30,638 nucleotides of DNA from the NCBI GenBank assembly GCA_964368965.1, contig CAYJDR010000021.1:9094-39731 (forward strand), read 5' to 3'. The notes under the pieces were generated by a model, which worked only from the letters and a program-made list of their open reading frames with translations, was not told where the DNA came from and did no database searches. A program made the position numbers and the translations under genes. This document shows positions 3,305-27,979 of the stretch, in pieces. Source of the DNA: an uncultured Deferribacteraceae bacterium. GTDB lineage: Bacteria > Chrysiogenota > Deferribacteres > Deferribacterales > Mucispirillaceae. Every line of letters begins with the position of its first letter. Position 1 is the stretch's first letter.

Positions 3305-3943
3305 TTACTTACCTTTTTTCTCTGGTATAATATTTATTTGTTTCAGTGCGCCAACGCCAGTTGATATAGTTGTAACCTCAGGCACAGAACGCAGTGCGAT
3401 ATGTACTGATTTACGCATAGATGCTGGCATAGCAGGCAACTTAGCAGGTTTCCCTGTAGTTTTTACTTGCTCTGCTAGTTTTAACGCTTTTTCGATATTG
3501 TCATCAATAGCTTTTTCTTTATAGCCATCAACATCAACGATAACTTCCATCTTAGATGTGTTATCAATATCTAACATTTTTTCAACTAAATATTGCATTG
3601 CATCAATAGTTTGGCCTGATTTACCAACTAACAAATCACGCTCACTAGTTGTGTGAATATTCAACACAATCCTCTCGCCTTTTTGCTCCATGTCAACGTG
3701 AGTATCTGGGAAGCCTGCTTTTTCAAGCATTTCTGATAAGATAACTCTTGCACGGCGTTTTTTGTGCTCGACTTCGTTATACATTATCTTAACTTTTGCA
3801 TTACGTTTACCGAAACCAAGCATACCTTTGCTGCCACTTTCAATAACTTCATGCTCGATATAATCACGTGAGATACCTTGCTGCCTTGAAAAAAGAGCAA
3901 TTACCTCTTCTACTGACGGTCCTTCTACTTCAAAAATTCTCAT
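3305..3943 (-). CDS. jag: Jag/KhpB RNA-binding protein (Jag_N, KH and R3H domains)
   Basis: The 212-aa ORF lies immediately downstream of yidC with a 9-nt gap. Its KH-like core (VILSEMLEKAGF…ERIVLNIHT) and R3H-like tail match the conserved yidC-jag arrangement. Confidence 0.85.
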   Translation of the reverse strand: MRIFEVEGPSVEEVIALFSRQQGISRDYIEHEVIESGSKGMLGFGKRNAKVKIMYNEVEHKKRRARVILSEMLEKAGFPDTHVDMEQKGERIVLNIHTTSERDLLVGKSGQTIDAMQYLVEKMLDIDNTSKMEVIVDVDGYKEKAIDDNIEKALKLAEQVKTTGKPAKLPAMPASMRKSVHIALRSVPEVTTISTGVGALKQINIIPEKKGK

Positions 3944-3952
3944 ATATACACC

Positions 3953-5485
3953 TTAGCTCGCACGTTTATTAATAACATACTGCTGAATAATAGTTAACAC
4001 GTTGTTTGTTAGCCAGTAAATAACTAACCCTGATGGGAAGTTTAGGAACAAGAACGTAAACACCACCGGCATGATAAGGAAAATCTTTTGCTGCATTGGG
4101 TCAGCCGTTGTAGGTGTCATTTTTTGCTGAACGAACATTGTAATACCCATGATGATCGGCGTAATGTAGTACGGATCTTTCATAGATAAGTCAACAATCC
4201 AGCCGAAGAATGGCGCGCCTTTCAACTCGATAGCAAGTAACAACGCTTTATATAACGCGAAGAAAATCGGTATCTGAATTACTAATGGTAAGCAACCACT
4301 TAGTGGGTTAACTTTATGTTCTTTATATAGTTCCATTGTTGCTTGGTTCATTTTCTGTGGGTTATCTTTAAACTTTTCTTTAATTTTTTGCATCTCTGGT
4401 TGCAATTTAGACATAGCCTTCATTGATGTCATACCTTTTAATGTTAAAGGTAGTGTAACAATCTTAACGATAACAGTAAGCATAATGATAGCGATACCGT
4501 AGTTATTGAATATGCCGTTGAAGTATATCATAATTTGCAACATCGGGATAGCTAGGAAATAGAACCAACCGAAGTCGATAGCTGTTTGCAAGCCCATGCC
4601 GAATGAACGCACGAGGTTATATTCTTTTGGTCCGATGTATGTGTACATTTCTGTTTCTGCTCTGTCACCAGGGTTTACAGTTAGAGATAGGTTTGCGCTA
4701 GCAACTTCACCGTATTGTGCAGGTGAGATTTTACCCATTTCAAAAGATGGCGATGCTGCTGCAAATAAGAAGTACTTAGAAGTGTAGCCAACCCATGATG
4801 GTGCAGCTAGTGTTTCAGTATCTTCGTCTGTAGCGTCAACTCTGTATGTTTTATCGCTGTTGCTTATCATTGCGCCTTCGAAGATATAGTTGCTTTCTTC
4901 AAAGTCTTTACCAATGCCAGCACCAACACGCACTTCTACAGGTACAGTTAAAGTAGTTTCGCCCGCGTTTGATGTAATAACTTTCGTCTTAACCAAATAT
5001 GAGCCGTTTTCAAGCGTATATTCTTTAGTAACAACAAGCGAACCTTGTGCAGCTGTGTAGCTAACGATAGTTGCGTTGTCTGTTTTTTGTACGTTTAGTG
5101 TGTAACCAGTAGCAATAGGCGTAGATAACGTGTAATAGTTATAGTCCATGCCTTTGTTGAATGTAACTGGGTCGCCTGCTACGTCGTCCCAACCTAGGAT
5201 AGATGCGCTTTTGATATCGCCTGTTGCGTTATCGAAAGTGATGTCTAAAACATCAGATTTTATTGAAATCGGCTCGTTAACAGTTGATGCAACGAGTGAG
5301 TTGTTTGTAGTTGAAGTTTCTACAGGTGTTGTTACTGTAGTAGTAGTTGATGTATTATCAACTGATTGGGCAGCAAGTTGTTGCTGATGCTCAGGATCCA
5401 TTGGTGGAGTAGGCGTCATGAAGAACTGCCACCCTAACAATATACCCATACTTAATACAACTGCTAATAATGTCCTTTTATCCAT
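3953..5485 (-). CDS. yidC: membrane protein insertase YidC (long form with large periplasmic P1 domain, diderm type)
   Basis: The 510-aa ORF has an N-terminal transmembrane helix, a roughly 270-aa periplasmic domain, and a C-terminal 5-TM 60-kDa insertase core (…PLSGCLPLVIQIPIFFALY…). Confidence 0.9.
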   Translation of the reverse strand: MDKRTLLAVVLSMGILLGWQFFMTPTPPMDPEHQQQLAAQSVDNTSTTTTVTTPVETSTTNNSLVASTVNEPISIKSDVLDITFDNATGDIKSASILGWDDVAGDPVTFNKGMDYNYYTLSTPIATGYTLNVQKTDNATIVSYTAAQGSLVVTKEYTLENGSYLVKTKVITSNAGETTLTVPVEVRVGAGIGKDFEESNYIFEGAMISNSDKTYRVDATDEDTETLAAPSWVGYTSKYFLFAAASPSFEMGKISPAQYGEVASANLSLTVNPGDRAETEMYTYIGPKEYNLVRSFGMGLQTAIDFGWFYFLAIPMLQIMIYFNGIFNNYGIAIIMLTVIVKIVTLPLTLKGMTSMKAMSKLQPEMQKIKEKFKDNPQKMNQATMELYKEHKVNPLSGCLPLVIQIPIFFALYKALLLAIELKGAPFFGWIVDLSMKDPYYITPIIMGITMFVQQKMTPTTADPMQQKIFLIMPVVFTFLFLNFPSGLVIYWLTNNVLTIIQQYVINKRAS

Positions 5486-5519
5486 TCTAAAGTTTCCTTG
5501 TTATTTGTTTATAGCGAAA

Positions 5520-5774
5520 CTATTTGACAGGGTCGTAACCGCCACGAGAAAATGGGTGGCACCTGAGTAAACGCCAAATAGTTAAGAATGTGCCTTTGAA
5601 AAAGCCTTTTTTGCTATATGCTTCAATAGCATACGAAGAACAGCTGGGATAAAACCTACAATTATTGCCTAAATAAGGCGAAATACAAAGTTTATAAATT
5701 TTTATCAATCCTATCGCGATTGACTTTGGCTGTAATCTTTGTAAATAGATGGATAATTTCTGCTTGAATTTCAT
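5520..5774 (-). CDS. yidD: membrane protein insertion efficiency factor YidD
   Basis: The conserved core [57 protein letters not shown] matches YidD. The start is ambiguous (GTG 5786, ATG 5774, TTG 5708), and every candidate overlaps the rnpA 3' end. Confidence 0.75.
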
Positions 5775-6096
5775 TAAAACTAGCACCTATTGCTGTAGGC
5801 TTCGCCCTTATTATAAGCTGTGTCCCAGCGGGTAATACACTTCTATTGAGTCGATATATTTCCCTAAGCCTTCGCTTGAGTTTGTTGCGTTTGACAGCAA
5901 GCTTACTAACTTTCTTGCTGACAGTAAACGCACACTTCAAGCCGCTCTCACCCTGCATAAAATGCACGATGAACAATTCACCCGACAACCGTTTCCCCGC
6001 GTAAACTGTTGAAAATTCTTGCGAAAATCTCAACCTTTCAGAACGGGGAAAAGTGTTGGATATATTAAACTGCGAGACGTTTACGGCCTTTTGCAC
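5692..6096 (-). CDS. rnpA: ribonuclease P protein component
   Basis: The motifs FPRSERLRF…[23 protein letters not shown] are characteristic of RnpA. The ORF-track start at 6096 is a GTG that overlaps rpmH by 32 nt, and there is no canonical start after the rpmH stop, so the true start is uncertain. Confidence 0.8.
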
Positions 6097-6205
6097 GTCT
6101 TCTTCTGATTATAGCTCTGCCAGAACTAGTAGCCATTCTTGCACGAAAGCCTTGTTTGCGTGCTTTTTTAATTTTTGTAGCTTTTGCCAGTGTCAACTGC
6201 GCCAT
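6065..6205 (-). CDS. rpmH: 50S ribosomal protein L34
   Basis: Manual translation (not in the ORF track, 46 aa) gives [46 protein letters not shown]. The L34 core GFRARMAT…[10 protein letters not shown] is canonical. A GGAGG ribosome-binding site (CACGGAGGAATAC-ATG) precedes it. Confidence 0.85.
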
Positions 6206-6285: not shown

Positions 6286-8742
6286 TTAATATTTCTCATA
6301 CGAAAATGTTTGTTTATAACATTTTACACGTGAAAAATCTTTATTCTCTAGGTCTTTCTTGTCTATCATGAAGTATAGAGCACCACCGTCACCCCATGCC
6401 ATTGCGCAACCTTCAAGTGATGGAACTTGCATAAGCAAGTACATATCTTCGCTTGTTTCCATATCATAGTCGATATAATCAGCATAGCCGAACATCTTGA
6501 AGCGTGGCTCAAAAGTTGAGATATCAATGTATGAATCAATTATGCTTTCATCGTCACCTAAGAAGCCGAATTTATTATCGTCCTCTTCGTAGTTTGGTAG
6601 GCTAACAGATGCATCAAGCCTGATAGCACATGGGAAGTATTCAATCGTATCTTCCATGTCATCGCTTGGCACTCTTACTAGTTTCGTAACATCTTCGTTA
6701 TAAATTACTTGGCTTTCGCCTGTTTCATCGTCGTAGAAGAAGCTTAGCATACCATTTTTCGGCAAGAAGCCTTTAACGTCATATTGTGCTGCTTCAGCAA
6801 GGTTGATTTGTGTGATAAAGTTCATGTAAACGTCGTCGCTTGCTTTTGGCCATTGCGCTTCGCTTGCTAGGTCAGGGCTACCACCTGCTTTTGATATAGC
6901 ACCAAGTGAGTCATCGCTCAACACTTCGTATGCTTCTGCATATATTTCTGAGCGTTGTAACGTTTTTAGCTGATCAGCGTATTTGCTAAGCCCACACTCA
7001 GGCAATATCAATTCATAATCTTCAGCTGTAACTTTAACACTACCGTCCCTCGCCTCAACATATACGCCTAAACGGTTGCTTGGTAGGTAAACCAGTGTAG
7101 CGCTATCAACTTCATCGTTGAATACGGCTTCGATAGTCATGCCATATAGTTTTTCTAAAACTTCGCTACCAACATCTAACCTTGTGATGTCATTAACACC
7201 GTATGCTGTTGGGCTACCTAAAACAAATACGCCTTTATCATCCATAGCAAGTTCAACAACGATAGATGTGTAAGGTTTACCACCAGTGTTCAATTCTTCT
7301 TCAAACATTGATGCTAAGTCTTCCAATTTTTCGCTATTGTCATCTAATGATAGGTCATAATATTCATCGAACTCTTTGATTTCATAAGTGATATCTTCCG
7401 CAGTAATTTCACTTGCGCCATCAGCTGGAGTGAACACAAACAAGAACGTATCCCATGCGCCAGCGATTGACGTTGTAATATCGCCTACTAAGTTTAGTTG
7501 GTCAATTAATTTATCTGCGTATTTATCATCAAGGTGTTGTACTGCAAAGTTGCCACCGTCTGATGTGTATAAATCTAGCGTGTAGCTTTCACCTTCGTCG
7601 ATAAGCCTGATAACACCCATATAGTGTTTGTGCTTAGTTTCGATACACTCCATTAAAGCTGTTGCAAGTATCGGTAAATTTTCAACCATATCTTTTTCGC
7701 CAGCTAGTTCATCGTTCGCTGGTGTAAATTCATCATCTTCTTCATCAGGTGATACGATATTATATACTTTGCTTTCTGCTTTATCTTTTTTATCATGTCC
7801 ACCACAACCACAGCCTTCGCCTTCATCGTGGTTATGTTCGCCACAACATTCGTGGTCGTCATCGTCGTGCCCATGTCCACCGCAACAGCCATCATGGCCG
7901 TGCTCATGCTCATCTTCATCAGCGTATAGTGGATAGAAAGTTGCACTATATCTACCATCGTAGAAACAAGTAACAGTGAACGCCTCTATATCGTGGCGCA
8001 TGTCAGATGCTGTTAGAAACTCTTCGATAGCTAGCGCTAAATCCATATTTTCTTCCATAGATTTATCAACAGTTTCTTCTGTGCCGTCTTTAGTAGTTGT
8101 GTACATTGTTGTGTTGCCAGTGAATAGGCCGTTTTCTACTTCAAACGTAACGTTGCGAACATTTTGCTCGCCTTTTAATATAACTGCTTTTGCGATATTT
8201 CTAAGTGATTCGAACATAGACTTATCTGACTTAGGGTTCTCGATAGTCACTTCTTTCGGTGCACGGTTAAACATGCGTGCTAAGTTTGCAAACTCACCGA
8301 ACACATGGTCTGGCTCGCCATTTGAAAGCCCAAGTATAGCGTATGATTCGACATCATCAGTTAAAACTGTGCCGTAAAATAGTGTTGGTTCTTCTTCAAG
8401 TTCAACCATTCCGCAAATTTCAAGTGCCAACATATCATCAGAGATGAAGTGGCGTGCTGCAAAGAACTCAACATCGCTACCCTCAGCACCTAAGAAGTCT
8501 TCAAGCAATAGCTCAAGCGTCTCGCCAACTGTGTCTTTAGCGTCGTTAAGTTTGCCGATACCAGCCATGAAATTAATACCTTCATCACTCCAAGAATGGA
8601 TAGACATGTTATTATATTTCGCTACGTCTTCAACGCCTGAGATAGCTACTTCAGGTTGTGCACCTTGTTCCGCTATTACATCGCCTGTTTCTTTAAATGC
8701 TTGTTTGATAGCATTAGTCCATGTGTTCATAAATTGCTCCAT
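6286..8742 (-). CDS. large acidic hypothetical cytosolic protein: N-terminal repeated modules, His/Cys/Asp-rich tract, C-terminal DUF1963 (YwqG-like) domain
   Basis: The 818-aa ORF has no signal peptide or transmembrane segment and is very rich in D/E. The C-terminal roughly 205 aa carry DUF1963 hallmarks: SKAGGSPDLASEAQWP…FITQINL…LPKNGMLSFFYD…LLMQV…AWGDGGALYFMIDKKDLENKDFSRVKCYKQ. Its start is 2 nt after the fabI stop. The alternative start M5 (8730) has a GGAG ribosome-binding site. Confidence 0.75.
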   Translation of the reverse strand: MEQFMNTWTNAIKQAFKETGDVIAEQGAQPEVAISGVEDVAKYNNMSIHSWSDEGINFMAGIGKLNDAKDTVGETLELLLEDFLGAEGSDVEFFAARHFISDDMLALEICGMVELEEEPTLFYGTVLTDDVESYAILGLSNGEPDHVFGEFANLARMFNRAPKEVTIENPKSDKSMFESLRNIAKAVILKGEQNVRNVTFEVENGLFTGNTTMYTTTKDGTEETVDKSMEENMDLALAIEEFLTASDMRHDIEAFTVTCFYDGRYSATFYPLYADEDEHEHGHDGCCGGHGHDDDDHECCGEHNHDEGEGCGCGGHDKKDKAESKVYNIVSPDEEDDEFTPANDELAGEKDMVENLPILATALMECIETKHKHYMGVIRLIDEGESYTLDLYTSDGGNFAVQHLDDKYADKLIDQLNLVGDITTSIAGAWDTFLFVFTPADGASEITAEDITYEIKEFDEYYDLSLDDNSEKLEDLASMFEEELNTGGKPYTSIVVELAMDDKGVFVLGSPTAYGVNDITRLDVGSEVLEKLYGMTIEAVFNDEVDSATLVYLPSNRLGVYVEARDGSVKVTAEDYELILPECGLSKYADQLKTLQRSEIYAEAYEVLSDDSLGAISKAGGSPDLASEAQWPKASDDVYMNFITQINLAEAAQYDVKGFLPKNGMLSFFYDDETGESQVIYNEDVTKLVRVPSDDMEDTIEYFPCAIRLDASVSLPNYEEDDNKFGFLGDDESIIDSYIDISTFEPRFKMFGYADYIDYDMETSEDMYLLMQVPSLEGCAMAWGDGGALYFMIDKKDLENKDFSRVKCYKQTFSYEKY

Positions 8743-11917: not shown

Positions 11918-12496
11918 TTATTTTTTACCTGTTAGTTTTTGTAGGGCTTGTTTGATAGCGTCATCAAAACTTGCGTCGCTATCAACGCCATCAAGTGCTT
12001 TTCTGCAATCTTGCGGTTTGAAGCCTAAGTTTACTAATGCGCTGATTACGTCTTGCATTGAGTCGCCACTATCTGAAGAAACACCTAGTTGAACAGAATC
12101 AACTTTGTCTTTCAAATCAACAACGATACGTTCAGCAGTCTTCTTGCCAACACCAGGGATAGATGATAGTAACTCATAATCAGATGATGCGATAGCGTGT
12201 TTAAGCTCTTTCTGCCCAATGCCACCGAGTATCTTTATAGCTAATTTTGCACCGATACTGTTGACAGAGATTAAAAGTAGAAACATTTTCTTTTCATCGA
12301 GGGTGCTAAAGCCGTATAAACTGATATCGTCTTCACGAACAGCCATATGTGTAAAGATGCTATCTTCGCTACCTTCTGGCTTTGAGCTAGAGTATGTGCT
12401 AAGCGAGATATTCACGACATATGCAACACCAGCAACCTCTATAACGATATACGCTGGTTGTTTCTCAATTATTTTGCCTGTAAGCTTATATATCAA
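11918..12496 (-). CDS. ruvA: Holliday junction DNA helicase RuvA
   Basis: From the TTG at 12496 the protein begins (M)[25 protein letters not shown]…, which aligns with the canonical RuvA N-terminus (MIGRLRGIIIEK…). The HhH motifs ([21 protein letters not shown]) are present. The longest ORF (ATG 12541) would add a 15-aa extension that overlaps ruvC by 49 nt. Confidence 0.85.
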
Positions 12497-12981
12497 TACT
12501 TTATCCTCGTTGTTTCCGAATTTGCGACACATATCGCACATGCAAGCGCGTCTGTAACATCAAGTGGCACGCCACCTTTCACAATAATGTTTAAGTGTAG
12601 CTCCACAAGTTTTTTCACTTGCTCTTTTTCTGCCCTGCCATAGCCTGTAACGGCTTTCTTAATCTGCAACGCTGTAAACTCTCTCACAGGTACATCGTGC
12701 GCAATCAATGCCCCGATCAAGCTTCCACGAGCTTGCCCAAGCAACAACGCACTCTTTACGTTTACCGAGTGGAAAACGTCTTCAATGCCTGCAACATCTG
12801 GCTTAAACTGGATGATGACTTTTGCAAGCCCAGATATAAGGCTACCTATGCGAACAGGTAGCTCATCTTTTGGGTTGGATTTAAGCAGTGCGTGCCCAAG
12901 ATACTCTATCTTGTTGTTTTCAACACGCACAACGCCAACACCTGTTTTGTTTAAACCAGGGTCAATCCCTAAAACTATCAT
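12493..12981 (-). CDS. ruvC: crossover junction endodeoxyribonuclease RuvC
   Basis: The N-terminus MIVLGIDPGLNKTGVGVV… has the RuvC catalytic Asp motif. The stop is TGA at 12495..12493, which shows that TGA is a stop codon in this genome. Confidence 0.9.
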   Translation of the reverse strand: MIVLGIDPGLNKTGVGVVRVENNKIEYLGHALLKSNPKDELPVRIGSLISGLAKVIIQFKPDVAGIEDVFHSVNVKSALLLGQARGSLIGALIAHDVPVREFTALQIKKAVTGYGRAEKEQVKKLVELHLNIIVKGGVPLDVTDALACAICVANSETTRIKY

Positions 12982-13813: not shown

Positions 13814-15145
13814 TTAATTTTCGTTATTTTTCAATAAGATAGCGCTTTCTGTTAAAATTATCTTTGCGATATGTTGCTTAGAGCATTTGCCAGACTCAGC
13901 TTGAGAGCCATCTCTAAAATATAGTGTAACGTCGTTATCGTCTGAACTGAACCCTATATCAGTTCTTGATACATCGTTTGCAACAATGATATCAGCATTT
14001 TTTGCATCTAGCTTCTTTAGTGCGTTTAGTTCAACATCGTTAGTTTCTGCGGCAAAGCCTACAACGACTTGACCAGCACGTTTATTTTCGCCCACAGATT
14101 TTAAAATATCTTGCGTTTTCACAAGTGATAGCGTCATATCATCATCACTTTTCTTTATCTTAACATCGCTAACGTTCGCTGGCGTATAATCTGCAACGGC
14201 TGCCGACATAATTATAATATCATAGTTTTTTGCATGCTTAGTAACTGCATTAAACATCGACTCAGCAGTTTCAACCGATACAATATCAACATCTGGCGCA
14301 TTCACTTCTGTAACACCAGACACAAGCAACACATCAGCACCCATTTGCTTTGCTTGCTCAGCTATTGCGTAGCCCATTTTGCCACTAGATTTATTTGTGA
14401 TGTAGCGAACGGGGTCGATATACTCACGCGTTGCTCCAGCAGTAACAAGTATCTTAACGCCTGTTAAAATGCCTTTATCAGCATTATCTGCAAGTCCGTC
14501 AAGCACTTCTTCATCAGCTACGCTGCCGTCAAAATATTCCTCTATAGATAAGTTATTAAACTCCGACACCATATCGTTAGCATAATCTGCAACATCTTCG
14601 TTTGCGATAGGTACAGGTAATTTATTTTCAAGGTTAGATAAAAACTCAACAATCTCTTCAGGCTCAGCCATGCGCCCTTTGCCTGTAACACCACACGCAA
14701 GTTCGCCGTCAGCAGGCTCAACAATATATCTGCCCCATGATTTCAACTTCAATATGTTTGCCATAGTTGCAGGGTTTTCATACATGTTTGTATTCATCGC
14801 TGGTGCAATGATTATTGGGCAAGATACAGCAAGAAGCGTTGTAGAAACGATTTCATCAGCTATTCCACTTGCCATCTTAGCGATTATATTTGCTGTAGCT
14901 GGTGCGACTATGCAATAGTCTGCCCATGAGGCATAGTCGATATGACCGATAGCGCTAGGTGCGCTACCGTTTGTCATAACTTGGTTACTTGATAAAGCTT
15001 CTAAGGTGAGTGCACCTATAAATTTTTCTGCATCGCTAGTCATCATAACTTTGACTTCATGCCCATCTTTTACAAGTAGGCGCACTAGTGATGCTGATTT
15101 ATAGGCGGCTATCCCACCTGATATCCCTAATAAAATTTTGCTCAT
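13814..15145 (-). CDS. coaBC: bifunctional phosphopantothenoylcysteine decarboxylase / phosphopantothenate-cysteine ligase CoaBC
   Basis: The N-terminal flavoprotein domain (ILLGISGGIAAYKSASLVRLL) and the C-terminal CoaB domain (ITAGATREYIDPVRYITNKSSGKMG) are both present. At 443 aa it has an acidic linker of roughly 35 aa that E. coli Dfp lacks. Confidence 0.9.
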   Translation of the reverse strand: MSKILLGISGGIAAYKSASLVRLLVKDGHEVKVMMTSDAEKFIGALTLEALSSNQVMTNGSAPSAIGHIDYASWADYCIVAPATANIIAKMASGIADEIVSTTLLAVSCPIIIAPAMNTNMYENPATMANILKLKSWGRYIVEPADGELACGVTGKGRMAEPEEIVEFLSNLENKLPVPIANEDVADYANDMVSEFNNLSIEEYFDGSVADEEVLDGLADNADKGILTGVKILVTAGATREYIDPVRYITNKSSGKMGYAIAEQAKQMGADVLLVSGVTEVNAPDVDIVSVETAESMFNAVTKHAKNYDIIIMSAAVADYTPANVSDVKIKKSDDDMTLSLVKTQDILKSVGENKRAGQVVVGFAAETNDVELNALKKLDAKNADIIVANDVSRTDIGFSSDDNDVTLYFRDGSQAESGKCSKQHIAKIILTESAILLKNNEN

Positions 15146-15937: not shown

Positions 15938-15966
15938 TTGAAAAATCAAACCACTTCAACTATACT
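15938..15966 (+). promoter_or_regulatory. candidate sigma70 promoter for yicC (TTGAAA-N17-TATACT)
   Basis: The hexamers have the optimal 17-nt spacing and lie about 45 nt upstream of the ATG at 16011. Confidence 0.4.
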
Positions 15967-16010: not shown

Positions 16011-16883
16011 ATGATTAAAAGCATGACCGGTTACGGCAAAATCACTAACTCTTATGAAAAATTTGACGTAACAGTTGAATTAAAAAGCGTAAACAGCAAA
16101 TATCTTGACCCTTCTTTCAGAATGTCTAAGTCATTGAATGCACTAGAGATACCTATTAGAAATATGCTACAAGAATTGCTTGTTAGGGGCAAAGTTGATG
16201 TTCGCATTGAACTCAACATGAACATCTCGCAAAAAATGCCTGTATTAAACGATGAACTACTTGTAGGCTACAAAGCAATATTAGATGAAATAGTATCAAA
16301 AACAGGCATTAACGACGAAGTTAAACTTGAACATATCCTACGTGCACCAGAACTTATCGAATATCGCTCTAACGACGACATTGAAGAAGAGCTACACAAA
16401 TGAGTTATGGAAACGATGAAAGAATGTATCGAGAAACTTGATGAAATGCGCATTGCTGAAGGCATTGCTATGGGTAACGACGTTAAAGCTAACCTTGCAA
16501 CACTTAAAGAAAATGTCGTGAAGATATCTAACGCACGTATCGACGTTTTCGCATTTTGGCATGAAAAATTTACGAAGCGCCTAACTGACTTAGGTGTAGT
16601 TGATATCAACGAAGAACGAATTGTGCATGAAGCTACTGTCTACGGTGAAAAAGCTGATATTTCAGAAGAGCTCACTAGGCTAGATAGCCATACTGACCAA
16701 TTTGAAAGCATCATATCTAAAGAGTTCCCTATTGGCAAAAAGCTCGATTTCCTAAGCCAAGAGATACACCGTGAACTTAACACAATCGCATCGAAAAGCT
16801 CACGTGTTGAGATTATCTCTACTGTTGTAGAGTCTAAAGCTATTGCTGATAGGATACGTGAGCAAATCCAAAACGTGATTTAA
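16011..16883 (+). pseudogene. yicC: YicC-family protein interrupted by a single in-frame TGA at 16401..16403 (ORF-track pieces 16011..16403 and 16407..16883 share one frame)
   Basis: The two ORFs together (130 + 1 + 158 aa) reconstitute a full-length YicC of about 289 aa (MIKSMTGYGK… through …ADRIREQIQNVI). There is no frameshift, only the TGA, and ATG 16407 follows 3 nt later without a ribosome-binding site. It could be a pseudogene, a split gene or a sequencing error. Confidence 0.55.
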
Positions 16884-17362
16884 TTAGGCACATTTACAAT
16901 AACTTTATTAGTTCTATCAATCATTTCAGCAGCTGGTGAGTAACCCTTGTCAGCTGCTTTTTCTAACAACTTATATGCCTCTACCCTATCTTGTGCTACA
17001 CCGATACCATCGTAATACATTAATGCTAGCACCTGATACGCTGGCAAGAAATTTAACTCCGTAGCCTTTTTCAAATACGCTGCAGCTTGCTCAACATCTA
17101 GCGGCACGCCTTCACCGTATAAATACATATAGCCTATATTGTATGTCGCATTTGGGTGTTGCTTTTTTGCGGCCTTTTCAAACCATTCGTAAGCTTTTGC
17201 TTTATCAACTTCAACATCAATACCATTTAAATACCTTGCACCTATGCGATATTCTGCACCTGAGTTGCCAAGCTTTGCAAGCTCTAAATCTTTATCTAAG
17301 TCTGACTCTGCAAACGCATTGCATGACATAAGCAACATTATTGTTATTATTAACTTTTTCAT
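16880..17362 (-). CDS. Sel1-repeat (TPR-like) secreted protein / possible lipoprotein
   Basis: The signal peptide is MKKLIITIMLLMSCNAFA. Three or four Sel1 repeats are visible (AEYRIGARYLNGIDVEVDKAKAYEWFEKAA; ATYNIGYMYLYGEGVPLDVEQAAAYLKKA; AYQVLALMYYDGIGVAQDRVEAYKLLEKAA). Confidence 0.8.
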   Translation of the reverse strand: MKKLIITIMLLMSCNAFAESDLDKDLELAKLGNSGAEYRIGARYLNGIDVEVDKAKAYEWFEKAAKKQHPNATYNIGYMYLYGEGVPLDVEQAAAYLKKATELNFLPAYQVLALMYYDGIGVAQDRVEAYKLLEKAADKGYSPAAEMIDRTNKVIVNVPN

Positions 17363-17364
17363 GG

Positions 17365-18453
17365 CTACTTCTCAGGCACTAGTTTTATAATAGTTGCTTC
17401 TGCATCTGCACCAAACCTCATAGGTGGCCCAAAAGTGCCAATACCTTTCGTAACATACACTAGCGTATCGTTATAATTGTACAGCCCTTTCAAGTATTCA
17501 AACTGTATGCTAGCAAGTAGCGTGGCTGGGAAAATCTGTCCACCATGAGTATGCCCGTTCAATATCAAATCTGCACCAGCGTCAACCATATATGGAATAC
17601 CCACAGGTTTATGCGCAGCAATAACTATCGGTTCATCTTTATTCAATTTAATAGTTGGCAAAACGCTTTTCATAGTTTCAGTTTTAGCTGATGAGTGACT
17701 GTCAACTGTGTGTTCATCAGGATTGATGTAGTCAAGCCCTAGTATTTGCACGCCTTTAATATCTATCACTTCATTTTCTAGAACGATTATACCATACTCA
17801 TTAAATAGTGCCCTTATTTCATCCATGCCGACATATACATCATGGTTGCCCACTGTGAAATACATTGGAACTGTAGTTTCCTTAAATGGTGCTAAGTTTT
17901 CATGCGTTAGTGCAACTTTTGAGTCAAAAAAATCACCGTTAAATATCACTACATCTGGCTGAATTTCGTTTATATCAGCCACAACTTTCATTGAACGCTC
18001 AACACCAGCAAACGCACCAAGGTGCACATCAGGAGCGTGGTAGATAACAACAGGTTCGGTTACGCCCTCTATTGCTAGTTCAATTTCATAGTTTTTGTAA
18101 TGCTTTGCGTTAACAGTCGCATAGCCAGCCACAACCAACGATAAAAACAATATACCAACCACAGCAGACCTAGATGAAAGCGGCAACAACCTGCCTATAA
18201 CAAAGTAGATGAATGTAAACATCAGCAAGAACGCTAAGTAACCAACCCAGTACATACTGACTTTATAGAAAAAATCGAGCGCACTACCACCATATTTAGA
18301 TGCTAAAATCATCAACACCATGCAACCCATTGTAAAAGTTACAAACCCTATCACATAATAGCGCCTTCTTTTGACGCCGTACCACCCTGCTAATTTATAT
18401 GGCACAAATACTATCAATGATATGATTAGCGCCATTCTTAGTATTTCATACAT
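17365..18453 (-). CDS. polytopic membrane-anchored calcineurin-like metallophosphoesterase
   Basis: Several N-terminal transmembrane helices precede MPP motifs (HAPDVH…GDFFD…GNHD…NGHTHGGQ). A 2-nt gap to the Sel1 gene indicates an operon. Confidence 0.8.
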   Translation of the reverse strand: MYEILRMALIISLIVFVPYKLAGWYGVKRRRYYVIGFVTFTMGCMVLMILASKYGGSALDFFYKVSMYWVGYLAFLLMFTFIYFVIGRLLPLSSRSAVVGILFLSLVVAGYATVNAKHYKNYEIELAIEGVTEPVVIYHAPDVHLGAFAGVERSMKVVADINEIQPDVVIFNGDFFDSKVALTHENLAPFKETTVPMYFTVGNHDVYVGMDEIRALFNEYGIIVLENEVIDIKGVQILGLDYINPDEHTVDSHSSAKTETMKSVLPTIKLNKDEPIVIAAHKPVGIPYMVDAGADLILNGHTHGGQIFPATLLASIQFEYLKGLYNYNDTLVYVTKGIGTFGPPMRFGADAEATIIKLVPEK

Positions 18454-21622: not shown

Positions 21623-22610
21623 CTATACTTTAAACGAAGCGACTAACGCCTTTAAGTTCTCAGTACGTACTTGCAAGTGTGAAACCGTTGCTGCAACTTG
21701 GCTAATTGCAGAGTTGCTTTCCTCAATACCTGTAGCGATTGTTTGAGTATTTTCAGACACCATTTGTATAGTGTTAAACTGCTCTGTATTTTTGCCAGAT
21801 AGCACTTCTGTATCTCCATAAACAGTTGACACGCTTGAAACAACTTCTTCAAAGCCTGCTGCTGTTTGCTTAATACTTTCAACACCTTCATCAATATATT
21901 CACCTGATTTCAACATTTCGTTTGAAGCAGCATCTGAGTCTGTTTGCAATGTTGAAATAATGGCCTCAATCTCACTTGTAGCTTTTTGCGTACGCTCTGC
22001 AAGCTTACGAACCTCGTCAGCAACTACTGCAAACCCTCTGCCAGCCTCACCTGCGCGTGCAGCCTCGATAGCAGCATTTAATGCAAGTAGGTTTGTTTGG
22101 TCTGCGATATCGTTAATAACAGTTAAAATCTCACCAATATGGCCAGAACTTTCAGATAATCTTGATATCTTCTCAGATAGCGATACTGATTGTTCGCTGA
22201 TTTTCGCAATGCTCTCTTGCACTGACACAAGCTGAGCTTGCCCTTCGCTAGTTGACGAATTTGTAGAGTTTAATATGCTTAAGTTTTTATCAAAAGCAAC
22301 TTTTGATTCGCTAGCAGTTTCGCTAATGAAGCCCATGCTAGATACAATCTCACCAACTTGGTGCGTTTGCCCTTCGAAAGTTATTGCGAGTTCTTCCATA
22401 GTTGCAGCAAGCTCATTATTGCTTGATGCCACTTCTTCAGCAGATGCTTTCACTTCAATAATTATGTTTTGTACGTTTGATACAAACTCGTTAAAGTGTG
22501 TTGCTAGCTCTTCAAGTTCATCATGGCTTGTCGTAGAGATACGCCTTGTTAAGTCGCCATCACCTTGAGTAAAGTCTTTAGTGACATTAATAAACCTTCT
22601 AAGTGGCGTT
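21623..22610 (-). repeat. conserved HAMP plus signalling-domain module of MCP paralog 1 (copy 1 of 3)
   Basis: Stretches of near-identical nucleotides are shared with the other two copies, for example TCTGCCAGCCTCACC…GCAGC…ATAGCAGC/GGCGTTTAATGCAAG…GTTTGTTTGGTCTGC. Confidence 0.7.
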
Positions 22611-23635
22611 ACAACAGTCTTCAACATGATAAACACAATCAATACGCCAATAGCAACTGCAATTAACGACATAACTGAGGCCGCAACTGTAGTAAACTTT
22701 AGCCTATCAGCTGTAGCTGTAGTATATTGAGCAACTGTAGATAATAATACGTCAGAAACTTTACCTAACTTTTCTATCATATCATAGTAGATAGTTCTGT
22801 TTTTATTTTTGATATCTGCATATTGTTTGCTGATGTCAATAAGATTAATAGTGGCAGCCATTAGTGCTTTATTAGCATCCTCAGCCACATCAACAACCTG
22901 CCTAACAGAGTCTACTTTGATAATAGCTCTAAGGTCATTTAATTGTGTAGCAACTAACTCAAGTGTTTCATAAACAGCTTCAGGTGTAGCAACTTTGAAA
23001 GTTTTATAGTCTAAATAGTTAATAGCAACAACAGCCACAGAAGATTTAACTTTATCAACAGCTTCTAATGCTTGTGCTAAGCGAATGATATTTGCGACAT
23101 CTTCGTTTGCGATAGCATCTTTTTGGAATTGGTTCGCTATGTCATAAAGTTTATTGGTGGTTTCTATCATTACTACATAGTTTTCTTTAAAAACACCGTC
23201 TAGCCTAATCATTTCGTCAACGATGCCTATTAAGTCTTCATGTGTTTTAATATAACTTTCTGCGGCGTCATAAGTAGCATCCATATCGTTAGCTAGCGTA
23301 CTAATTAATACTTCATCACGGTTTTCAGCAAGCAACTCACGCAGTGCAGCTATGTCAGCATATGACTGTTTTAAAAATCTTTCAGATCCTTCTTTCCTGC
23401 TTTGTTCTGAACTGATTGTGTAGTTTAAAATATTAATGCTTGTTAAAAGGTTAGAACTGTCAAGCTTCTTTTCAGCATTAATAAAAGGCGTATAGACATG
23501 AGTGGAAGCCTCTGCCTCTTTTGATGAAACTGTTGAAAGCGAATAAATTATCACCCCTTGGATAACCCCTAAGATTACCAGTGATATAACCGCAATCACT
23601 ATTTTTTTCGTAATAGTAAATCTTATCCCAAACAT
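21623..23635 (-). CDS. methyl-accepting chemotaxis protein, paralog 1
   Basis: The architecture is TM1, a roughly 270-aa helical periplasmic ligand-binding domain, TM2, HAMP ([23 protein letters not shown]), then an MCP signalling domain ([34 protein letters not shown]). The start was moved to the ATG at 23635, which is preceded by GGAGGGA; the longest ORF starts at 23662. Confidence 0.9.
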
Positions 23636-23724
23636 ATTTCCCTCCATATTAAAAGTAACCATACATATATACGCATATCGTACACCTATTTTTCAATAAA
23701 ATAAAGATAATTTTATATAAGAGT

Positions 23725-23758
23725 TAAAAAAAATGGTAGCTAACTATCAGCTACCATT
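23725..23758 (-). terminator. rho-independent terminator for MCP-2
   Basis: A 10-bp perfect stem (AATGGTAGCT / AGCTACCATT) with a 7-nt loop is followed by a U8 run on the minus-strand transcript. Confidence 0.55.
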
Positions 23759-23781
23759 CATATTTATAAGTTTGAATTGTT

Positions 23782-24770
23782 TTAAACCTTGAATGAGGCA
23801 ACCAATGCTTTCAAGTTTTCTGTGCGCATTTGTAAGTGTGATACAGTTTTAGCCACTTCACTAACTGCTATATTGCTCTCCTCAATACCTGTAACGATTG
23901 TTTGGGTGCTAGTAGACACAGCTTGTATGATATTGAATTGCTCTGTATTCTTTTCAGACAATAGTTCAGTATCTTGGTAGATTGACTGCACAGTTGATAC
24001 AACATCTTCAAAGCCAGATGCTGTTTGCCCAATGCTATCTACACCTTCGTTAATATACTCACCAGATTTCAACATTTCGCTAGATGCGGCTTCGGAATCG
24101 GTTTGTAATGTAGAGATAATGTTTTCAATTTCGCTTGTAGCTTTTTGTGTGCGTTCTGCAAGTTTGCGCACTTCATCTGCAACTACTGCAAACCCTCTGC
24201 CAGCCTCACCAGCACGTGCAGCTTCAATAGCGGCGTTTAATGCAAGCAAGTTTGTTTGGTCTGCAATGTCATTAATAACGGTTAAGATATCACCGATATG
24301 TTCAGAGCTTTTTGACACCCTTGATATCGTTTGTGATAACGATGTAGATTGCTCACTAATCTTAACAACGTTACCTTGCACTGCAACAAGCTGTGCTTGG
24401 CCTTCACTAGTGGAAGCAGTTGTTTCGTTTAATATTGCTAGGTTGTTATCAAATGCTACTTTTGATTCCTCTGCACTTTTGCTAATTAAAGACATGCTGG
24501 TAACAATTTCGCTGACTTCAGCAGTTTGGCCATCAAATGTAACTGCTAACTCTTCCATAGTTGCAGCTAGCTCGTTGTTGCTTGTAGCGACTTCTTCCGC
24601 AGCTATTTTAACTTCAGTAATGATATTCTGAACATTTTCAACAAATGCATTGAAGTATGTGGAAAGCTCTTCCAATTCATCACGGCTAGTTGTTGTGATG
24701 CGCCTAGTTAAATCACCGTCACCTTCTGTGAAATCTTTAGTGATATTGATAAACCTTCTAAGTGGCGCTG
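23782..24770 (-). repeat. conserved HAMP plus signalling-domain module of MCP paralog 2 (copy 2 of 3)
   Basis: It shares the same conserved nucleotide stretches and is closest to copy 3. Confidence 0.7.
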
Positions 24771-25794
24771 TAACTGTTTTCATAATAACAAGTACAACAA
24801 TAATGCCTATTGCAACAGCAATAATTGCCATGATATATGATGCAGTAGTCGTTAAATCTAACCTTTCAACCGTTGCAGCAGCATATTCTTCACTTCTAGT
24901 GTTTAGTGTTTTGATAACGCCATCTAAATGTTTGCTCATTTCTGCAAAAGCGTTTCTATTTTGTACTTTTAAGCCATCATATTCCACTTTGATATCTGCA
25001 AGGATAGCCGCAGTTTCTATTAAAGTATTGCCTGCTTTTTCAGCTGTCTCAATCATCTGAAAAGTAGTTGGTTGTTTAACAACTTTTTTAAGTGTAGCTA
25101 GTGCTGCTAAAACTTCCTTAGTGTTATCTGTAATAAATTTGAAGTCACTTGAAGTGAAAGTTTTAATAGTAAGGTAACCATAAACAACATCTTCAATAGC
25201 AGCTGTTAAGTGGTAGTTAGCTTCAATTGCTTTAGCGATACGGTTAGTATTTTCGACATCGCCATCTGCTATCGCTTTGTTCATATATCTGAACGCGTCT
25301 CCAGTGAGAGTCGAGATATTTTCGCGCGCTACATTTAATGCTTCGAGAAATTTTTCCTCTTGTGTTACAGACTCAGACGTAAGATCTAACAGCCTTGTTG
25401 TAGAAGCTAGGAATGCATCAATGCCTTTGTTTGTAGCTTCAAACTCATCGAGCAGCGATTGAATTAGTGGATCATCACCATTTTCATCAACCATATTTTT
25501 AACTAACGCTTTAGTGCTATTAGCTTGCGCTAAAAATGCTTTTGCGCGCTCAGATCTAGCATTATCACCATCAATTGAAAAGTTAACAACATTGAGGTTT
25601 GCTAACAATATCGAGTTTTTAACAGAGTTTTCTGCAAAGTTCAATGGATAGTATATCTCGTTAGAAGCTTTTGCTTCATTCGTAGACTTTTTTGCTAGTA
25701 TCGAAATTATTGCACCTTGCGCAATATATAGCATGATAAGTATAACTATACCTGCAACTATTTTCTTAGTAATTGTAAACCTAAATCCGTTCAT
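23782..25794 (-). CDS. methyl-accepting chemotaxis protein, paralog 2
   Basis: It has the same architecture as paralog 1. A GGAGG ribosome-binding site sits 7 nt upstream of the ATG. The C-terminal roughly 330 aa are about 93% identical to paralog 3. Confidence 0.9.
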
Positions 25795-25908
25795 TCTTAA
25801 TCGCCTCCAAAAGCAATCATTTAGATATTTAATTTTATTAAGGTATTACAATACTACTAAGTTTAAAAAAAATAAAGAAAAATTTCTTTAATGTTTTATT
25901 TTTCACGC

Positions 25909-25940
25909 AAAAAAGGTGGCAAACGTTTGCCACCTTTAGA
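25909..25940. terminator. bidirectional rho-independent terminator for MCP-3 (20-nt perfect palindrome GGTGGCAAACGTTTGCCACC at 25915..25934)
   Basis: The palindrome is flanked by AAAAAA on one side and TTT on the other, and it lies 30 nt after the MCP-3 stop. Confidence 0.6.
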
Positions 25941-25963
25941 TAATATTTTATTAATTAATTATA

Positions 25964-26950
25964 TCAAACTTTAAATGAAGCGACAAGTGCCTTTAAGTTT
26001 TCAGTACGCATTTGTAGGTGCGATACAGTTTGAGCAACTTGGCTAACAGCGATATTGCTTTCCTCAATACCCGTAACGATTGTTTGAGTACTGCTTGAAA
26101 CAGTTTGTATAATATTGAACTGCTCTGTATTCTTTTCAGACAATAGCTCAGTATCTTGATAGATTGACTGCACTGTTGCAACAACTTCTTCAAATCCAGC
26201 AGCAGTTTGCCCGATACTATCTACACCCTCATTAATATATTCGCCAGATTTTAGCATCTCATTTGATGCTGCTTCAGAATCTGTTTGTAATGTAGATATA
26301 ATGTTTTCAATTTCACTTGTTGCTTTTTGCGTACGCTCTGCCAGTTTGCGCACCTCATCTGCAACCACTGCAAACCCTCTGCCAGCCTCACCAGCACGAG
26401 CAGCTTCGATAGCGGCGTTTAATGCAAGCAAGTTTGTTTGGTCTGCTATATCATTAATAACTGTTAAAATATCGCCGATATGTTCAGAGCTTTTCGACAC
26501 CCTTGATATCGTTTGTGATAACGATGTAGATTGCTCACTAATTTTAACAACATTACCTTGCACCGCAATAAGTTGTGCTTGGCCTTCGCTTGTGGAAGTT
26601 GTTGTTTCATTTAATATATCTAAGTTGTTACAGAAAGCTGTTTTTGACTCTTCAGCGCTTTCACTAATTATAGACATGCTTGTCATAATCTCGCCAACTT
26701 GGTGCGTTTGGTCATCAAATGTAACAGCTAGCTCTTCCATTGTTGCAGCTAATTCATTGTTGCTTGTTGCAACTTCTTCTGCAGCGGCTTTAACTTCAAT
26801 AATGATGTTTTGAACATTTGCCACAAATGCATTAAAGTATCTTGCAAGTTCTTCTAACTCGTCATGGCTAGTAGTTGTAATGCGCCTTGTTAAGTCGCCA
26901 TCGCCCTCTGTAAAATCTTTAGTTGTGCTGATAAAGTTTCTAAGTGGTTG
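25964..26950 (-). repeat. conserved HAMP plus signalling-domain module of MCP paralog 3 (copy 3 of 3)
   Basis: It shares the same conserved nucleotide stretches and is closest to copy 2. Confidence 0.7.
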
Positions 26951-27979
26951 CACAATCGCCCTACGCACAACAAACATACTCACGATACCTACTAAAAGTG
27001 TCGATAGCACAAGTATAAATGATGTAAGTGTAGTGAACTGTAGCCTTGATGAAGTGGCTTCTGAATATGTTGCAACTCTATTATTCATCGCTGCTGAAAT
27101 TTTATCTAGTTCTGCTTTCATTTTGTAGTAGATATCTCTATTTTCAGCTTTTATATCATTATATGATGCCATGATTTTATCTAACTCTGTTGCTGTTGAT
27201 ATAAGGTTTTTACTTGCTTCATCTGCTGCTTTTATAAACACTTGAACATCACTACGCTTAACTTGAACCTTCAAATTATTTACAGCTTCTGTTACAAGTG
27301 CAATAGATTTCACAACTTCGTCCATGTCATATTTGCTGAGGTTTTTTGCATCAAAAAACTGCTTTGTAACCATAGCAACTGCCGACTTTAACTCCTCGCT
27401 GAGTTGAAGTGCATTTATAGTGTTTGACATTGCTGTAACATCGCCAGAATCTGCGATAATGTCTGCCCTCTTGGTAGATTCACTATGTATGGTGCTTGCG
27501 CTTGTATCCATAATATTCAACTTTTCAATAAACTCGCTCTCCAGTGTCAACATGTCATCAATTATTGTAAATAAGTCATCATGTGTTCCGATATATAAGC
27601 CTGCCTGCGTATATGCCGCTTCCATTGTTGATGATAATTCATTAATTAGGTCGTTACTGTCACGGTGCTCGGCTAATAACTCTTGAAGCACAACTAAATC
27701 ATCTTTTGAACTTTGTTGGAATGTTGCCGCACCACTTTTACGGGTTGGGTCAGCTGTGATAAGGTAGTTAACCAAGTTGATGTTGGTCAACAATAGTGAA
27801 GTATTAAGAGCAACTTCTGCATTTACAAATGGCACGTACACATCATTTGATGCGGTTGCCTCACGTGATGACACTGTTGATAATGAGTAATTAATAACCC
27901 CTTGCACAACACCTATCATCAGTAGCACGACAGTGATAATTGCAACCTTTTTAGCAATTGTAAGTCTGAATATGTTCAT
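25964..27979 (-). CDS. methyl-accepting chemotaxis protein, paralog 3
   Basis: It has the same architecture as the other two paralogs and a GGAGGA ribosome-binding site. Its N-terminal sensor domain diverges from paralogs 1 and 2, while the C-terminal signalling module is near-identical. Confidence 0.9.

Follow-up and report, generated by a model that had tools for sequence, protein, structure and literature searches.

We found that the yicC gene of an uncultured Deferribacteraceae bacterium is cut in two by a single in-frame TGA in a 30,638-nucleotide stretch of contig sequence (hereafter, the window), one base away from the cysteine codon that the closest ortholog carries at the same place. 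The window is read by the standard code, no recoding signals accompany the stop, and the gene shows no further decay. The split, as read in the sequence, is real and far beyond chance, and is of an ordinary kind, that of the interrupted gene. We give about an even chance to a real and very recent nonsense mutation of a TGY codon to TGA, which would make this a young loss-of-function or strongly hypomorphic allele of yicC; in this reading we infer both that the organism truly has this base and that the function has been lost. As it stands the finding matters little, since it concerns a single-base lesion in a dispensable and well-characterised gene family on one draft contig. Its main bearing is on annotation, in which the two open reading frames should be flagged as one disrupted yicC and not as two proteins.

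Layout of the interrupted gene

The two open reading frames, 16011..16403 (130 aa) and 16407..16883 (158 aa), lie in one common frame. Read directly on the + strand, their junction is ...CAC AAA TGA GTT ATG GAA..., with the TGA at 16401-16403 and an ATG at 16407-16409 (Table 1). Joined, they give 290 codons, made up of 130 codons, the TGA position, a valine and a further 158 codons. This reading aligns with orthologs with zero gaps, and 290 aa is the length of nearly all of its closest homologs, which belong to the Mucispirillum group of the Deferribacterota. In the protein search, homologs of at least 49% identity were almost all single proteins of 285-295 aa; the window gene, by contrast, does not encode a single uninterrupted polypeptide of about 290 aa, because its codon 131 is TGA. 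The open reading frame coordinates and the gap-free alignment bear out two claims of the first-pass annotation, that the pieces share a frame without indels and that an ATG follows 3 nt after the TGA. Its reconstruction of a YicC of about 289 aa with one extra residue was right about normal length but not about the count, which is 290 codons when the TGA position is included.

Both domains of the family were recognised in the pieces. The N piece alone matched PF03755 (YicC-like_N) with an E value of 2.6e-32, and the C piece matched PF08340 (YicC-like_C/DUF1732) with an E value of 5.2e-36 over profile positions 9-119 of 120. Once the pieces were joined, the PF03755 match grew from profile position 126 to position 154 of 156, so that it covered positions 1-154 and crossed the stop. 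Because the N-domain match runs across the stop, this is one gene cut in two, and a chance juxtaposition is ruled out. The joined reading also matched E. coli YicC (8hvj, 8ver and 8ves) over residues 1-289 (E 2.5e-33). The YicC/YloC endoribonucleases (E. coli YicC and B. subtilis YloC; PF03755 plus PF08340, TIGR00255) form hexamers and cleave RNA in a metal-dependent way. The joined reading is like them in having both domains in order and colinear, with the catalytic glutamate cluster and the RNA-binding arginine residues conserved. It differs in that the TGA at codon 131 blocks the single polypeptide that is found in every characterised member and close relative.

The architecture of E. coli YicC allows the break to be placed in the protein. 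In that enzyme, an N-terminal beta region (residues 1-70) is followed by a hexamerising cap helix (82-112) set between two flexible hinge loops (71-81 and 113-125), a stalk (126-213) and the catalytic DUF1732 domain (214-287), and in the crystal structure the N-terminal beta-sheet packs against the stalk (PMC11417398). Codon 131 of the window gene aligns with about Glu129 of E. coli YicC. In the AlphaFold model of the closest ortholog (protein P0001, pLDDT 89), the last strand of the N domain spans residues 116-120 and a long helix spans residues 122-175, so that the cut comes some 9 residues after the stalk helix begins and only about 10 after the N-terminal alpha/beta domain ends. The cut therefore lies inside the stalk helix and inside the Pfam N-domain model, not in a loop and not at a clean domain boundary.

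Alanine substitutions that abolish the activity of E. coli YicC are known at M5, N28, R30, E216, E217, F244, R251, E252, R280 and E281 (PMC11417398). All of these required positions are represented in the window gene, as M5, N28, K30, E219, E220, F247, R254, E255, R283 and E284. The catalytic residues E216/E217/R251/E252/R280/E281 correspond to E219/E220/R254/E255/R283/E284; position 30, an arginine in E. coli, is a lysine in the window gene, as it is in most Deferribacterota relatives. In E. coli numbering, M5, N28 and R30 fall on the N side of the break, and E216, E217, F244, R251, E252, R280 and E281 fall on the C side. With essential residues on both sides, neither fragment is predicted to be able to act as an RNase alone, and activity would need either readthrough or non-covalent assembly.

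Table 1 Coordinates of the interrupted yicC gene, its candidate signals and the other genes of the window
Feature	Position	Strand	Basis
yicC codons 1-130: N-terminal alpha/beta domain, hinge, cap helix and start of the stalk helix (~9 residues)	16011..16400	+	Pfam; gap-free alignment; AlphaFold model of ortholog; map in PMC11417398
In-frame TGA, codon 131; TGC (Cys) in the closest ortholog	16401..16403	+	Sequence; DNA alignment with L001; variable column
GTT, codon 132 (Val), 3-nt spacer from stop to ATG; Val also in ortholog P0001	16404..16406	+	Sequence; alignment
yicC codons 133-290 and TAA: remainder of stalk and catalytic DUF1732; possible reinitiation ORF from Met133	16407..16883	+	Pfam; counterparts of catalytic residues
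Promoter-like site TTGAAA-17-TATACT upstream of yicC	15938..15966	+	Consensus scan, 10/12 matches
Candidate terminator-like hairpin with T-run, 45 nt past the yicC stop	16928..16958	+	Consensus scan; 13-bp stem, 6 GC pairs
FAD oxidoreductase; Crp-like regulator; jag-yidC-yidD-rnpA-rpmH; DUF1963 protein; FabI-like reductase			
radA, ruvB, ruvA, ruvC, yebC, coaBC, band-7 protein; Sel1-repeat protein; metallophosphoesterase			
Hybrid histidine kinase, three MCPs, Orn/DAP decarboxylase, LptF/G			

Genetic code and possible recoding of the UGA

The genetic code of the window is standard. Its 24 open reading frames end in TAA (18), TAG (3) or TGA (3), and the tryptophan codon TGG is used 43 times in its genes. 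The ruvC gene (12493..12981) has exactly the same length as its ortholog, 162 aa, and its TGA stop lies within an ATGA overlap with ruvA, and another gene that ends in TGA lies at 25964..27979. No in-frame TGA or other interruption was found in the 22 other genes of the window, and all of the other genes have full-length domain matches. Reassignment of TGA under table 4 or 25 was rejected on the 43 TGG codons, the ruvC stop and the 22 intact genes. The first-pass annotation had excluded codes 4 and 25, taking TGA as a true stop from ruvC and noting that no other gene in the window was broken; the end of ruvC, the usage of stop and tryptophan codons and the intact neighbours agree with it on each count.

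A UGA can also be read as sense by programmed recoding, whether as selenocysteine, as cysteine through a UCA-anticodon tRNA or by efficient readthrough, and any of these would give a full-length 290-aa protein. We consider this very improbable for yicC, even though the closest ortholog has a cysteine at the UGA position, the classic selenocysteine/cysteine pairing, and conservation persists downstream of the UGA. Position 131 is not conserved and is absent from the residues known to matter, and TGA is a true stop in ruvC. The RNA that follows offers no SECIS element either. Folding of the 70 nt past the UGA gave a minimum free energy of -11.6 kcal/mol (z = -0.45), which is no significant structure. 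The best hairpin of SECIS geometry, taken as an apical loop 16-37 nt past the UGA with a G in the loop, which are reportedly the criteria of the bSECISearch literature, reached -2.3 kcal/mol, compared with -14.9 kcal/mol for the E. coli fdhF control. An Rfam scan of the sequence after the UGA returned noise only (E > 1), and selenocysteine was rejected at this site on RNA structure and Rfam. The earlier impression that no SECIS-like hairpin follows the stop thus holds up under folding and Rfam. A search for selenocysteine genes, which the first-pass annotation had proposed for the whole genome, was made over the 30.6-kb window and found no selA, selB, selC or selD and no tRNA gene, and a literature search on selenocysteine in Mucispirillum returned nutrition papers only.

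The yicC gene therefore resembles bacterial selenoprotein genes in having an in-frame UGA aligned with a cysteine of its nearest homolog, but differs from them in that it has no SECIS, in that the position is neither conserved nor functional, and in that no selenocysteine machinery is present in the window. Because the position is non-conserved and non-catalytic and no SECIS follows it, the cysteine of the closest ortholog is best explained as the residue whose codon mutated into the stop and not as one half of a selenocysteine/cysteine pair.

Origin and consequences of the stop

The closest relative of the window gene encodes the 290-aa protein P0001 (72% identical), and its locus, L001 (contig CAYJIW010000042.1, assembly GCA_964370335.1), shares with the window the order ruvB-ruvA-ruvC-yebC-coaBC-band7, yicC, histidine kinase. 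In the DNA alignment, L001 has TGC (Cys) opposite the TGA of the window and CGT (Arg) opposite the ATG at 16407, so that one C-to-A transversion accounts for the stop. The premature TGA is a single mutational step from the orthologous codon, as expected of a recent nonsense pseudogene. The earlier suggestion to look for TGG or TGT in orthologs was followed, and the answer was neither of these: the closest ortholog has TGC, at a position that is not conserved. Among 23 aligned homologs, column 131 varied widely (C, K, I, M, N, A, L, T, E, F, V, Q and others), and cysteine occurred in the closest ortholog only, the other 22 carrying different residues; with such a column, no special residue is expected or required there. 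Two intact homologs, P0006 and P0008, also have methionine at position 133, so there is no need to see the ATG at 16407 as a response to the stop. In the genes of the window, 5.4% of codon positions have an ATG within two codons, and 24% have an ATG, GTG or TTG within five. A start codon adjoining the TGA is thus only mildly unusual.

The rest of the gene carries no sign of age. We found no further stops or indels in it, and all family-invariant residues were kept in both halves. In a relative-rate test with more distant relatives as the outgroup, 19 substitutions were specific to the window lineage and 15 to L001 (chi2 0.47). No relaxed selection on yicC, in the form of extra lesions or an accelerated branch, was found, a result that only a very young lesion can accommodate. 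Relative to L001, the N half has a dN/dS of 0.15 and the C half one of 0.04. With synonymous sites saturated (pS 0.65-0.75), these values reflect long-term constraint only and cannot date the lesion. Because there are no indels, second stops or excess divergence, the lesion is very recent when set against the 28% by which the protein has diverged from L001. This lack of decay is expected equally of a recent mutation, of an error and of a functional split.

The split yicC is known from one contig of a single assembly. Both pieces form singleton clusters in the protein collection (P0121, 130 aa, and P0123, 158 aa) that come from one 39,731-bp NCBI contig, and the split is not conserved in related genomes. 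Neither of the pieces, nor either of two neighbouring proteins, had an exact match in the contig index. A scan of the genome collection with the motif DFLSQEIH found, among the matches listed, only relatives at ≤39% identity, and a metagenome scan with lineage-specific peptides found no relative. Thus, no relative closer than L001 was seen in the metagenome scan or among the genome-scan matches listed, and no split yicC was seen in relatives in the protein search, in the metagenome scan or among those same genome-scan matches. An in-frame yicC stop was found in 1 of 81 other fetched loci, L021, from a Tissierellia MAG (JAAYEL010000109.1), in which a TAA (L021:1576-1578) replaces the nearly invariant Trp183, at a different site from the stop in the window. 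That stop is either an independent lesion or a MAG error, and it indicates that sporadic yicC lesions, or MAG errors, do occur. A literature search on YicC pseudogenes returned nothing relevant.

The explanations that the first-pass annotation had left, namely a recent nonsense mutation, a split gene with reinitiation and a sequencing error, are the same three that still stand. In the reading that we prefer, one recent C-to-A transversion would have changed the non-conserved cysteine codon 131 (TGC or TGT) of an otherwise intact yicC to TGA. Ribosomes would stop after 130 residues at a TGA that is a normal stop, and full-length YicC would be made only through rare natural readthrough. The N piece would hold the beta-sheet, the hexamerising cap and the RNA-binding residues, and the C piece would hold the stalk and the catalytic glutamates; the allele would be an incipient pseudogene of a dispensable gene. 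Such an allele resembles young bacterial pseudogenes with a single nonsense mutation, in that a single base separates the stop from the ortholog codon, the gene is dispensable and otherwise undamaged, and L021 offers a comparable sporadic lesion, but it differs in that a start codon adjoins the stop and the downstream half could still be translated. This ATG, 3 nt past the stop (about 5% by chance), counts against loss of function, as do the naturally coupled gene pairs of the window, whose Shine-Dalgarno sequences are just as weak. The C piece may well be translated despite the TGA, and the ortholog model makes fragment complementation conceivable at a cut about 10 residues past the alpha/beta domain.

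If both of these things happened, termination at the UGA would be followed by reinitiation at the AUG at 16407, and the 130-aa and 158-aa products would form an active hexamer non-covalently. Termination-reinitiation is established in bacteria, and by analogy with coupled genes it is mechanistically plausible 3 nt past the yicC stop. The stop and restart codons (UGA-GUU-AUG) lie within a few nucleotides of each other, and a consensus scan of the + strand of yicC found no internal promoter-like site before 16407, so both pieces would be on one mRNA. The anti-Shine-Dalgarno match at this AUG is weak (-2.2 kcal/mol), yet the coupled genes of the window have equally weak or absent ones (coaBC -1.5, ruvC +0.1 and ruvB -3.8 kcal/mol); their junctions are TAATG (band7/coaBC and yebC/ruvC), ATGA (ruvC/ruvA) and stop plus 1 nt (ruvA/ruvB). 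The yicC junction is like that of translationally coupled ATGA/TAATG pairs in that stop and start share an mRNA, lie 3 nt apart and lack a strong Shine-Dalgarno sequence; however, such pairs encode conserved, separately folding proteins, whereas the yicC junction falls within a helix of one protein and is known from a single assembly. The cut comes just past the last N-domain strand (116-120), beside the region of the flexible E. coli hinge 113-125, and packing of the beta-sheet against the stalk, as in the crystal structure, would provide an interface. The cut nevertheless lies within a helix and within the Pfam N-domain model, not in a loop. Every invariant residue is kept in both halves, but this is equally expected of a very recent pseudogene. 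No split was seen in relatives: the close homologs are single proteins of 285-295 aa and the pieces are singletons. The ATG, with its chance of about 5% and a Met133 in intact P0006 and P0008, need not be an adaptation. We regard a working two-piece YicC as unlikely, and as only a mildly novel possibility. If it were true, it would be a natural fragment-complementation variant of a clamshell RNase, cut at the hinge-to-stalk junction; a functional pair would mean that the clamshell tolerates chain breakage there and would be a natural case in which a nonsense allele is rescued by termination-reinitiation, a result of modest interest to those who study RNase structures. Somewhat unlikely, in our estimate, is the third explanation, in which codon 131 is TGC or TGT in the organism and its yicC is intact; the A at 16403 would then be a sequencing, assembly or consensus error, or else a minority variant taken up into the consensus of a draft or metagenome-assembled contig. 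Only one base is altered in a gene that is otherwise perfect (invariant residues kept, no indels, balanced rates), both pieces are singletons from one NCBI contig without independent confirmation, and the change is of the C-to-A type that oxidative damage typically leaves as an artefact in short-read libraries. On the other hand, the 22 other genes, over about 30 kb, are free of frameshifts and stops, so the assembly appears accurate, and consensus substitution errors are rare compared with real nonsense polymorphisms.

Gene neighbourhood

The window has a G+C content of 38%, and yicC appears to be monocistronic within it. Promoter-like sites in the yicC region are no more numerous than in shuffled sequences, so the site listed in Table 1 is weak evidence of a promoter. 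The terminator-like hairpin is the only one of its kind and sits in the 3' end of the convergent Sel1-repeat gene. The TAA stop of yicC (+) and the TAA stop of this convergent gene (-) overlap in the palindrome TTAA at 16880-16883. The stretch 16880-18453, which separates yicC from the hybrid histidine kinase, is taken up by two genes, one for the Sel1-repeat protein of 160 aa and one for a membrane metallophosphoesterase of 362 aa. L001 is otherwise syntenic but has the kinase immediately after yicC.

Several other genes of the window have features of their own. CoaBC (13814-15145, -) is 443 aa long, compared with 402 aa in L001, and its extra 41 residues form a single gap between the flavoprotein and DFP domains, an acidic linker-like stretch. 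An 818-aa protein with a C-terminal DUF1963 domain (6286-8742, -) contains a His/Cys/Asp-rich stretch, HEHGHDGCCGGHGHDDDDHECCGEHNHDEGEGCGCGGHD, whose composition suggests metal binding. Three tandem paralogous methyl-accepting chemotaxis proteins of 679, 670 and 671 aa (21623-27979, -) have zero tryptophan codons and zero or one cysteine each, and one of their genes ends in TGA.

Some of the listed start codons are probably misplaced. The region 3305-6205 (-) holds the classic rpmH-rnpA-yidD-yidC-jag cluster, in which the longest open reading frames of rpmH, rnpA and yidD share 30-95 nt with one another; translation of rnpA and yidD thus probably begins downstream of the listed starts. The longest ruvA open reading frame (11918-12541, -) encodes 207 aa and overlaps ruvC by 49 nt. 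Starting from the ATG at 12496, ruvA would encode 192 aa, which is the length of its ortholog, and would form an ATGA overlap with the ruvC stop; this ATG is likely to be the true start.
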